Assembly: GCF_006345805.1 (NCBI RefSeq)
Contig: NC_043010.1
Span: 33,976,001-34,040,000, forward strand
Source: Octopus sinensis
Lineage: Eukaryota
DNA length: 64,000 nt
Reading direction: 5' to 3'
The notes beneath the pieces are model-generated. The model did not search any database. It had not been told where the DNA came from and saw only the letters and a list, made by a program, of their open reading frames with translations. The position numbers and the translations under genes were made by a program. This document shows positions 26,379 through 28,739 of the stretch, piece by piece. The first letter of the stretch is position 1; each line of letters starts with the position of its first letter.

Positions 26379-28739
26379 ATATCCTTTTCAGTAGCACTGA
26401 CAGCAATATTTTTGATCCAGTTTAAACATCACAGCTATTTGATGCTATTTTTTTCTTTCTTTGTAGTTTTCTTTTGAGAAATATTTAATCTTTCCATTAA
26501 ATTTATGATGGATAGGTCAAATATTTTATTTTTCTCTATCACTTAAATGGCCTTGGAAAATTCTGTGTTGTCAAATTTTAATTCTCAAACCTCTTTAGGC
26601 TGCTGAGGGTTTTTGTTTTACACTGTCCAGATGAGTCTTATTAGACACTCCAATTGGAGTATATTAAACTACAATACCAAACTTCATTGAATGCACTGTA
26701 CAATGAGTTGTTGAGATGTAGTCTTTTTTTATTATTTCCTGATTTTCTTCTTGGAAAATCTGCAGAACTGATTATTATGAAATGATTTTTCTTGCTATCA
26801 CTCCCACCAGCACTTTTCCCCCCCTTAGTTTGTGTGTACATCTTAATGTATTAAAAAATGTCTGAGACTTAAAGAAAGAAAAAGATAGTGCTAATAAACT
26901 GGATTTCTAAATTGTATTGTCAAATTAATGCATGTCTGGTTAATGGTTTCACTTCCAAACTGAAATACAACTCTTGAAATTTGGGAAAGGTTTTAGCTCT
27001 TGAATAATATTCTAAAAAGCTTGTTAAATGTATTTTCTGAATTTTCAATCTTGATATTTGATATGCAACACCAAAGCTCCTGATTTAATCTAGTAAAAGA
27101 AATAAAGTATTTAATCTGTACAAGTACTCACTACTTGCATCATTAGCTTCCCCAATTCTATCTAAAAATTCCTTTATAAAAAAATTCTATTAACTGGAAT
27201 ATTAAGTCCTTGAACTTATTAAATTATAATTGTATTTCCCATCCCTCTGTATTTAGAAGCAATCCTTTTACCTTTTGTAATGTTTGTAATAAAAATGTTT
27301 TGGTATGATCAAATTTTTATGCCAGTCTTTCGTTTCTTTTTATTAGAGCTCAAGTAAAGATAAATACTAACAAGGCTCGCCTCCTAAGTGGTCAAGGTTA
27401 ACCTTAGCAAGAGCAATGGACAGACAAACAAAATGGGCAAATGTTCCCCTCAAGCTTTGAGCAAAGAGCTAGCGATGCATGGTATGCAAGTACTACAGAT
27501 ACCGAAAAACTACAAAGTTGTAATGGTTGGAGGTTCATGCCAGAGGCATCGAAGATGTCGGGAAGTCTAGTGCTGTTGGTTTACTGTCCCAATACAAGAC
27601 AAGATTCAGAAAATAGCAAGTTTCAAGCAAGTCAAGAGTTTGAAGATATAATATCCAGACATGCAATTACTTCATTATTTACAGCTGTGGCTGGATCATC
27701 TGACAAGTTTTCTGTTCAGGTGGGGGTTTTGCTTTCTATCCCATCTTACAAAAAAAATCATTTAAATTGCCCCTGTTAAGGGGAGTTGCTACTGGTAATA
27801 ATAAGACAAAAATGGTATATTATATAGTGATTGTGTTTAAAATCTGGGCTAATGTATAAACTGGTAAAAATCCTTTCTTAGTAAATGTGTAAGTGATTGT
27901 AGCAACTTCTCTTAAATTAAACTTCAGGGAAGATGGAGGATTAAGATTAAGAAATTATCCAATTGAGCTAAAGTTTTGTAATTGTTTTGGGAGGATATTT
28001 TGTAGTGTCTCTCTTTGACAAAAGTACACCTACTTGGGCTTTAATGAAGCAAATTTTCTCCCTTCTATAATTTTTATTTGTGACATTAATTAATTAGCTT
28101 GACAACTGGATTTAAATAGATTCAGATTTCATTTTGGGTACGTGTAGAATATTTTTACAGTTTAAAACAAGATTGTTTCCTTTTTTTTAAAAAAACAATG
28201 TATTGTTTGATACTGGTAGACTATTGTTTACTAGTGACTGTTAAAATAATGACTTTTCACTTGCAGAAAATTTGAAGTGTAAATTTGGTTTTTCTTCAAT
28301 GTTTACTGAAACCAGCAGGTCTCGTAATAAATTCAGTTTTGCTGAACGAAATGTGCTTTTTGCTCGTCTCTATTAAAAATAGTTACCCCCTTCAGGCTTT
28401 GGATTTCCATCTGTAGTGTTCCTTTAATTACGAGTTTGGGGCTTTGACCCTTCCTATAGAAAATGTTAAAATTTGAATAAATGAGAATTTCAAGTTAATC
28501 AACTTGTATCCTTTAAACAAGTACTGGTTTTTAATTGGGCATTGGTGATGATATGGTCTTGCTAAAATGACGGGAGGGAGTGAACGGCTGCTGAGTTTTA
28601 CTTTTAGTATGTATGTAGGAGACTTGATATTTTAACAGGACGGCAATTCACTGGTATGACACAAATGTGGTTGATTCACATTCTAAATCCTTATGGAATT
28701 TTAAACTTGCCAAGCAAGTTTATCCTTAACAAAAGATAC
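26379..28739 (+). other. U12-type (minor spliceosome) AT-AC intron
   Basis: 5' ATATCCTTT, branch site TATCCTTAAC at 28721-28730, terminal AC at 28738-28739; joining gives the in-frame RNP1 continuation AYIQ-FED. Confidence 0.95.
27347..27719 (+). other. Candidate U2-type poison/alternative exon nested in the U12 intron
   Basis: Strong pyrimidine tract TCTTTCGTTTCTTTTTATTAG acceptor, purine-rich non-repetitive body with early stop codons, possible CAG|GTGGGG donor. Confidence 0.4.

Follow-up and report, generated by a model that had tools for sequence, protein, structure and literature searches.

A candidate counterpart of vertebrate SRSF10 exon 3 within the AT-AC minor intron of an octopus SRSF10-like gene

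In mammals, SRSF10 binds exon 3 of its own gene and favours major-type splicing that starts at a donor further downstream; the resulting extension contains a stop codon, and exon 3 a polyadenylation site (accessible text of PMC7244321, PMC8329584, PMC8522700 and PMC7726792). A 64,000-nt stretch of the Octopus sinensis genome (contig NC_043010.1, positions 33,976,001 to 34,040,000; hereafter the window) contains an SRSF10-like gene with an AT-AC intron, inside which the initial annotation had placed a candidate poison exon that may belong to the same kind of circuit. The locus therefore raises the question of whether this segment is a genuine exon-like element, whether it corresponds to vertebrate exon 3, and how it would act. 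Judged by its composition and position, the segment is real and beyond chance, and the 373 bases are likely an ancient self-limiting element, for which spliced use as a poison exon is a candidate role.

The SRSF10-like gene and its AT-AC intron

The gene is modelled with eight exons encoding a 226-aa RRM-RS protein. Its exon peptides match the Pfam family RRM_1, and their nearest proteins are mollusc proteins named SRSF10/12 (85–91%). The exons flanking the intron, and the intron itself, are as follows.

15663..15727, plus strand: coding part of SRSF10-like exon 1 (sequence, loose ends joining exon 2 in 4/4 RNA runs, 226-aa model)
26274..26378, plus strand: exon 2, first part of the RRM (Pfam RRM_1, SRSF10/12 relatives, contigs)
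26379..28739, plus strand: U12-type AT-AC intron 2, 2361 nt, with donor ATATCCTTT at 26379 and AC at 28738–28739
28740..28843, plus strand: next coding exon, second part of the RRM, with AC acceptor (contigs, Pfam, gene model)

This minor intron combines a perfect U12 donor, branch site (TCCTTAAC at 28723) and AC end. Reading through the AT donor meets a TAG at 26392–26394, so that retained-intron messages end at 61 aa, inside the RRM. Exon 1 ends at a U2 donor, GAG/GTGAGT at 15728, which is a possible partner for an internal acceptor.

Several further observations were made in the window. A perfect GT-type U12 donor, GTATCCTTT, occupies 28506–28514 within the minor intron, 234 nt upstream of the AC acceptor, and no joint at 28506 was seen in the four contig sets described below; another GT-type U12 donor, ATATCCTTG, lies at 26139 in intron 1. 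Intron 3 holds two similar copies of about 45 nt (28900–28945 and 29000–29045) which, by eye, resemble micro-exons: TTTTAG, five bases, GT. A 182-codon frame at 40468–41013 appears to us to resemble the DNA-binding start of a Tc1-type transposase. Elsewhere in the genome, an intronless 345-codon RRM-RS frame (G000:C1:203656756-203659857) is one that we take to be SRSF2-like. An SRSF10-like gene without the minor intron (G000:C9068:83338-86436, minus strand) has a first intron of 23 nt. Tiny introns, with a mean of 26 nt, are typical of dicyemid parasites of cephalopods (accessible text of PMC2222250), and given this dicyemid-type intron the contig may represent parasite DNA in the assembly.

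Composition and splice signals of the internal element

The segment under study and its boundary signals are as follows; groups A and B are two sets of related loci described in the next section.

27324..27346, plus strand: predicted U2-type pyrimidine tract and AG acceptor (15/18 pyrimidines)
27347..27719, plus strand: CAAG-rich exon-like element, 373 nt, candidate counterpart of vertebrate SRSF10 exon 3 (motif counts and word models; core 27342–27640)
27651..27658, plus strand: degenerate U12-like donor ATATCCAG where the CAAG core ends (pattern across lineages)
27720..27725, plus strand: predicted U2-type donor CAG/GTGGGG closing the element (best of 80 GT sites; groups A and B also end in invariant GT donors)

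The segment had been described as GA-rich, a description that the counts contradict: GAA/GAG occurs 11 times versus 15.1 in 2000 shuffles, and AGAGA is absent, which rules out an enhancer of the AGAGA type. The excess lies in CAAG, present 13 times in 27347–27719 (from 27351 to 27707) versus 3.7 ± 1.8 after shuffling, and none of the 2000 shuffles reached 13. Elsewhere, the maximum per 373 nt is six in the 64-kb window and eight in 200 kb of further genome. Near-matches (at most two mismatches) to the SRSF10 motif AAAGACAAA, taken from the accessible text of PMC8522700, number six in the 373-nt element, the first at 27356, versus six in 1997 nt.

The segment was also said to be non-repetitive, and 27200–27800 indeed matches the genome once in a search that skips very common words. 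This argues against a repeat origin of 27200–27800, and the accompanying claim that the intron lacks a SINE holds for this interval, which is the part that the check covered. A 123-codon open frame spans 27408–27776. A coding role was rejected for it, as it belongs to no Pfam family; among 1.84 billion representatives its relatives were limited to its own ORF call and one repetitive hit (E 9.5e-4). The frame is represented by a lone unspliced Logan ORF (P0191), which reads straight through 27720. A structured RNA was likewise ruled out by the lack of any Rfam match in the segment and a folding z of -0.16. Further downstream, a sub-threshold miRNA-like Rfam hit was recorded at 28151–28222 (E 0.13).

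The acceptor AG at 27345–27346, with 15/18 pyrimidines, equals the acceptors that the gene uses at 29420, 29720 and 31143, in agreement with its description as a strong U2-type site. By itself it proves little, since the same intron contains six acceptor-like sites, three of them with at least 15 pyrimidines; intron 1 has about 1.4 acceptors of comparable strength per kb. The donor reported at 27720 is present: its pairing with U1 (-10.8 kcal/mol, computed with the generally known U1 consensus) is the best of 80 GT sites in 27500–28700 and falls within the range of the donors that the gene uses (-7.1 to -12.2 kcal/mol).

Two GT sites downstream of the AT donor had been proposed as weak competing donors. 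Both exist and both are weak in the window allele (-1.9 and -4.0 kcal/mol), versus -6.6 kcal/mol for the competing donor of the vertebrate control.

26391..26396, plus strand: candidate competing donor TCA/GTAGCA (U1 pairing -1.9, rank 19 of 45 GTs)
26516..26521, plus strand: second candidate competing donor (C at 26518 in the window and run X11; A in X1, X5 and X9)

By its rank, the 26391 site is no better than background GT sites. Its hexamer is the donor hexamer of 14/16 group A loci, but the G at -1 is missing, and, judged from protein sequence, two close relatives (P0001, P0034) have no GT there at all. Joining 26391 to 27347 would yield, as had been anticipated, a truncated product, here of 78 aa. 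The in-frame stop of such a spliced form would be the TAA at 27399–27401, 318 nt before 27719 in both joins tried. The extension created by the 26391 route contains no stop; in the 26516 route the stop at 26392–26394 sits 121 nt upstream of the junction. Between 26387 and 27320 the window allele has no strong donor (best -4.7). The 26516 donor changes from -4.0 kcal/mol with C at 26518 to -6.7 with A, and no other major donor from the AT donor to the element is as good as the A form; this natural allele or species difference could tune the switch. Neither AATAAA nor ATTAAA was found in 27347–27719, the nearest such hexamers downstream being at 27916 and 28326.

The same intron in other animals

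A pattern consisting of the exon end plus the U12 donor recovered 89 loci in metagenome contigs; three of these were set aside, L066 and L088 as exons of genes other than SRSF10 and L030 at 18 nt. Because the pattern requires a U12 donor, losses of that donor cannot show up in this set. The next exon is contained in 53 loci, and 51 of these 53 introns end AT-AC; they collapse to 40 distinct complete introns, and 33 more loci without the next exon were used only as partial copies. An AAG-rich block is present in 39 of the 40 distinct complete copies, including those of coral, molluscs and the known vertebrate exon 3. No element was found in L007 (partial, 2006 nt), L011 (partial, 2309 nt) or L056 (complete, 109 nt). 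Two variant introns were observed in addition: in L044 the same intron ends AT-AG and the element is present, and in L056 the 109-nt intron ends AT-AA and lacks the element.

Conservation across species had been suggested as a check, and its outcome is divided: motif words and position recur, but no sequence can be aligned across lineages. A blastn comparison with 85 other intron stretches gave no hit for the window intron, and homology therefore rests on position and words. The words AAGATAA, AGACAAG and TCAAGCAA, chosen after the fact, occur inside the element in 6–7 of 13 lineages, the window included, and none occurs outside it.

Groups A and B are taxonomically unplaced and 71–82% identical to various invertebrates. 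Since the members of each group are kin, each group counts once. The internal block measures 334–413 nt in group A (16 loci) and 207–278 nt in group B (12 of 14), and it is kept while intron length varies from 968 to 3437 nt. It starts at a conserved AG (15/16 in A, 12/12 in B) and ends at an invariant GT donor (16/16 and 12/12), has stops in every frame, and is rich in AAAGA or CAAG. In all 16 group A loci an AG/GT(A/G) major donor lies 17–18 nt past the AT donor, preceded in 15/16 by an in-frame stop; group B has no competing major donor at that position. The predicted organisation of group A, with competing donor, stop and block, is thus the vertebrate layout.

Locus L070 served as positive control. 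When its +68 donor is joined to the internal segment, the product matches the tail of the annotated gecko SRSF10 protein P0072, which makes this segment vertebrate exon 3; it ends at a minor-type donor, as described for that exon. Among the remaining loci, L008 encodes two exon peptides 100% identical to a coral protein, and L031 is 94–97% identical to bivalves. In these two and in L027 and L012, just 67–118 nt separate the AT donor from the acceptor downstream of it. A nested intron would hardly fit into such a gap, which suggests that the acceptor is not universally paired with the vertebrate donor.

A 5-mer word model with free boundaries was trained on groups A and B only, leaving out L034, in which the acceptor is changed. 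On both strands of the 64-kb window its top segment was 27342–27639 (score 75.1; next 66.1), and among 160 further genomic chunks of 2.5 kb only two matched this score; both consist of simple AG-rich sequence and lack an acceptor. The same model found a segment scoring 87–299 in 13 of 14 complete non-training introns, four of which are close coral kin, the single miss being L056; the controls reached at most 55 in 28 flanking or reversed stretches beside 10 introns and at most 66 in 62 window chunks. A strict acceptor stands at the segment start in 7/10 lineages versus 5/62 window chunks, 5/28 control stretches and 16/160 chunks. The reverse model, built from 10 other lineages, selected 27344–27640 in the window, with 11/160 chunks as high and none of them with an acceptor, and found the A/B block in 27/28 loci. 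A model from two mollusc-like loci selected 27342–27648 (4/160 chunks as high), and one from group A alone had 25/160 chunks as high. Vertebrate-only and coral-only models chose the same start, at scores within the background range: 101 and 114, respectively, of the 160 chunks scored as high.

Within this set, a U12-like site lies at most 25 nt from the element end in 5/11 lineages, the window included, versus 0.45 expected; groups A and B have no U12-like site near the element end. A USSE of the kind in SNRNP48/RNPC3 was considered and rejected for this intron, in which U12 5' splice sites are single (27651, 28506) with no tandem repeat. According to the accessible text of PMC8329584, the USSE is a tandem consensus repeat, unlike the one degenerate site at the element end; the likeness is that a U2 acceptor could be activated by a U12-type 5' splice site that lies downstream of it and is itself unused.

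Compared with the vertebrate SRSF10 exon 3 circuit (Meinke et al. 2020, PMC7244321, accessible text), the octopus locus shares the gene family, the position of the AT-AC intron in the RRM, a predicted internal U2 acceptor, a purine/AAG-rich exon or exon-like element of 350–370 nt, a putative (here degenerate) U12-like site near its end, and a read-through stop soon past the AT donor. It differs from that description in having no alignable sequence, in being dominated by CAAG where the vertebrate exon is GA/AAAG, in lacking a convincing downstream donor, in being closed by a strong U2 donor, and in that only retention was seen. Two defining vertebrate features are missing at the octopus locus: an extension whose stop codon lies less than 50 nt upstream of its junction, and an exonic polyadenylation hexamer.

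RNA contigs, possible modes of action and meaning

RNA evidence came from Logan contigs, not raw reads, of four runs (X1, X5, X9 and X11) from four studies under two organism labels. Of the 24 runs that the search listed, none is recorded as RNA, although the 14 best rows are guessed to be RNA; exon-exon joints in all four chosen runs show that they are. The runs were selected because they contain the stretch. Depth is an unreliable measure in contigs, and rare joints are lost from them. The AT..AC joint of the minor intron was seen in three of the four runs, and the whole minor intron was present as one unbranched contig in all four. Contig depth gives rough retention values of 0.20, 0.22 and 0.29 for this intron, X9 being without any spliced joint, and of 0.02, 0.025, 0.00 and 0.29 for the next intron, which X9 also keeps; intron 4 is bridged in all four runs. 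In X9, a single contig at depth 105 (26272–28843) joins exon 1, exon 2, the whole minor intron and the next exon, hinting at near-complete retention. Loose ends in X1 and X9 (29761–31143) run from exon 5 into exon 7, that is, skipping of the 36-nt exon 6 (30254–30289) in the RS region.

Junctions ending at 27347 had been expected of a poison exon, and none appeared: in 4/4 runs neither a joint nor a listed loose end fell at 26391, 26516, 27347, 27651 or 27719 (one loose end was not displayed), and the visible unproductive form is the retained intron. These contigs show retention, and a spliced form may have been shed from them as a rare joint. Among 125 public proteins, no spliced invertebrate poison form was recognised by eye, and those matchable to a locus (e.g. 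P0022 to L031) are read-throughs of the unspliced intron. In many gene models (P0021, P0023, P0029, P0036, P0040, P0046, P0062 and others) the AT-AC intron is misread, inserting residues starting with YP into the RRM.

The reading that we favour, with confidence at about the midpoint, is that the element is an ancient counterpart of vertebrate SRSF10 exon 3 whose main action in this gene is likely to keep the minor intron from being removed. The CAAG-rich element likely binds SRSF10 itself, and would recruit SRSF10 and U2AF/U1 across 27347–27719, drawing the major spliceosome onto the 27347 acceptor. This recruitment would compete with U11/U12 assembly, so that removal of the minor intron would likely be slowed and messages would be left unproductive, mostly with the whole intron retained and ending at 61 aa. 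Complete splicing into 27347, with the exon 1 donor or the 26516 site as partner, is predicted to be rare because no good donor lies past the AT donor. Common descent with motif turnover, SRSF10 binding and retention caused by the element as a decoy are what we infer. Retention need not stem from the element, given the selection of the runs, the unreliability of depth as a measure and the slow splicing that is common among minor introns in any case. A simple SRSF10-driven decoy would predict the opposite of the rise in retention that followed SRSF10 knockdown in a mouse minigene (accessible text of PMC7244321).

Decoy exons such as that of SF3B1 intron 4 (Parra et al. 2018, PMC6097662, accessible text) are likewise conserved-type non-coding cassettes in a large retained intron of a splicing-factor gene, and their junctions are described as rare or unseen without NMD inhibition; they differ from the octopus case in that the host intron here is U12-type and the decoy role putative. 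The host intron is large (2361 nt, above 1 kb) and is an unbranched contig in 4/4 runs chosen as containing it. The ancient SRSF5 poison exon (Lareau and Brenner 2015, PMC4379411) offers a second parallel, with a homologous position from anemone to vertebrates, little sequence similarity and flanking introns that are often retained; it is unlike the present element in belonging to another gene, in involving U2 introns only and in being backed by ESTs, and the accessible part of that text mentions neither SRSF10 nor U12. An exon of this kind is thus not new, the SRSF5 exon being equally old. No invertebrate report of such an SRSF10 exon was found in a literature search from which subscription papers were mostly absent.

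A true poison exon, as originally proposed, appears unlikely though the strongest of the alternatives. The major spliceosome would join the exon 1 donor, the A form of 26516 or, less likely, 26391 to 27347 at a level too rare for contigs, and the product would be degraded through NMD or terminated at a polyadenylation site further downstream. The good acceptor, the best-in-region donor, the stop 318 nt before 27719 in both joins tried and the full vertebrate layout of group A are consistent with it, and the absence of the real AT-AC joint from X9 indicates that contigs do lose joints. In vertebrates, exon 3 can be spliced onward and be targeted by NMD (accessible text of PMC7726792). Against it stand the four runs without a joint or listed loose end at any of the five candidate sites (one loose end not displayed), the passage of P0191 unspliced through 27720, and the best donor of -4.7 between 26387 and 27320 in the window allele. 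U2 donors do not pair with AC acceptors, and the donor at 27720 would have to skip the next exon. The claim of a shared circuit finds support in a positional and motif counterpart of vertebrate exon 3, in an architecture that recurs across animals including group A; it finds none in the proposed donors, which are weak or run-dependent, in a polyadenylation hexamer, which is absent from the exon, or in a 27347 joint, which appears in none of the four contig sets.

It is improbable that the element is a decaying relic, homologous to the ancient exon and losing function, with retention reflecting slow minor splicing only. It is the weakest of its set (score 75 versus 87–299; 5.4 AAG per 100 nt versus 6.5–11.6), its U12-like end site is degenerate and the upstream donors are poor or variable, which would fit decay; however, its CAAG excess lies far above shuffles and above 264 kb of its own genome, and its acceptor and donor are intact. 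The four runs show no base difference within 27347–27719, a weak test since there are three in the whole intron. It is very improbable that the segment is ordinary intron sequence in which an acceptor arose by chance, or a small gene for a protein or a structured RNA: acceptors this strong are frequent in intron 1 and the 123-codon frame is open, but motif and position argue against chance, and the frame without Pfam family or relative beyond its own ORF call and the one repetitive hit, the missing Rfam match and the folding score against a gene.

Returning to the ancient-counterpart reading, we consider it on balance probable that an SRSF10 minor-intron rheostat predates the coral-bilaterian split, with a U2-acceptor-bounded (C/A)AAG-rich exon kept in the same AT-AC intron in nearly all animals sampled. 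Its words would have been kept and its sequence not, and its wiring rebuilt: donor plus stop in vertebrates and group A, an acceptor 67–118 nt behind the AT donor in four lineages, and retention in the octopus. Such a module would mean that SR-protein level and minor-spliceosome activity have been functionally coupled since ancient times. Its suggested read-out is the shared (C/A)AAG word, rather than generic GA-richness, with poison inclusion and retention as suggested interchangeable outputs of one module; exact coordinates are now given for invertebrate tests. The mammalian SRSF10 exon is cold-induced (accessible text of PMC7726792), so a cold-blooded version would be of interest, a link that is speculation. 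It is still an open matter whether function or drift accounts for the persistence of minor introns (accessible text of PMC10639083), and if the proposal is true, a regulatory exon kept in one minor intron from coral to vertebrate would be a clear case of function.
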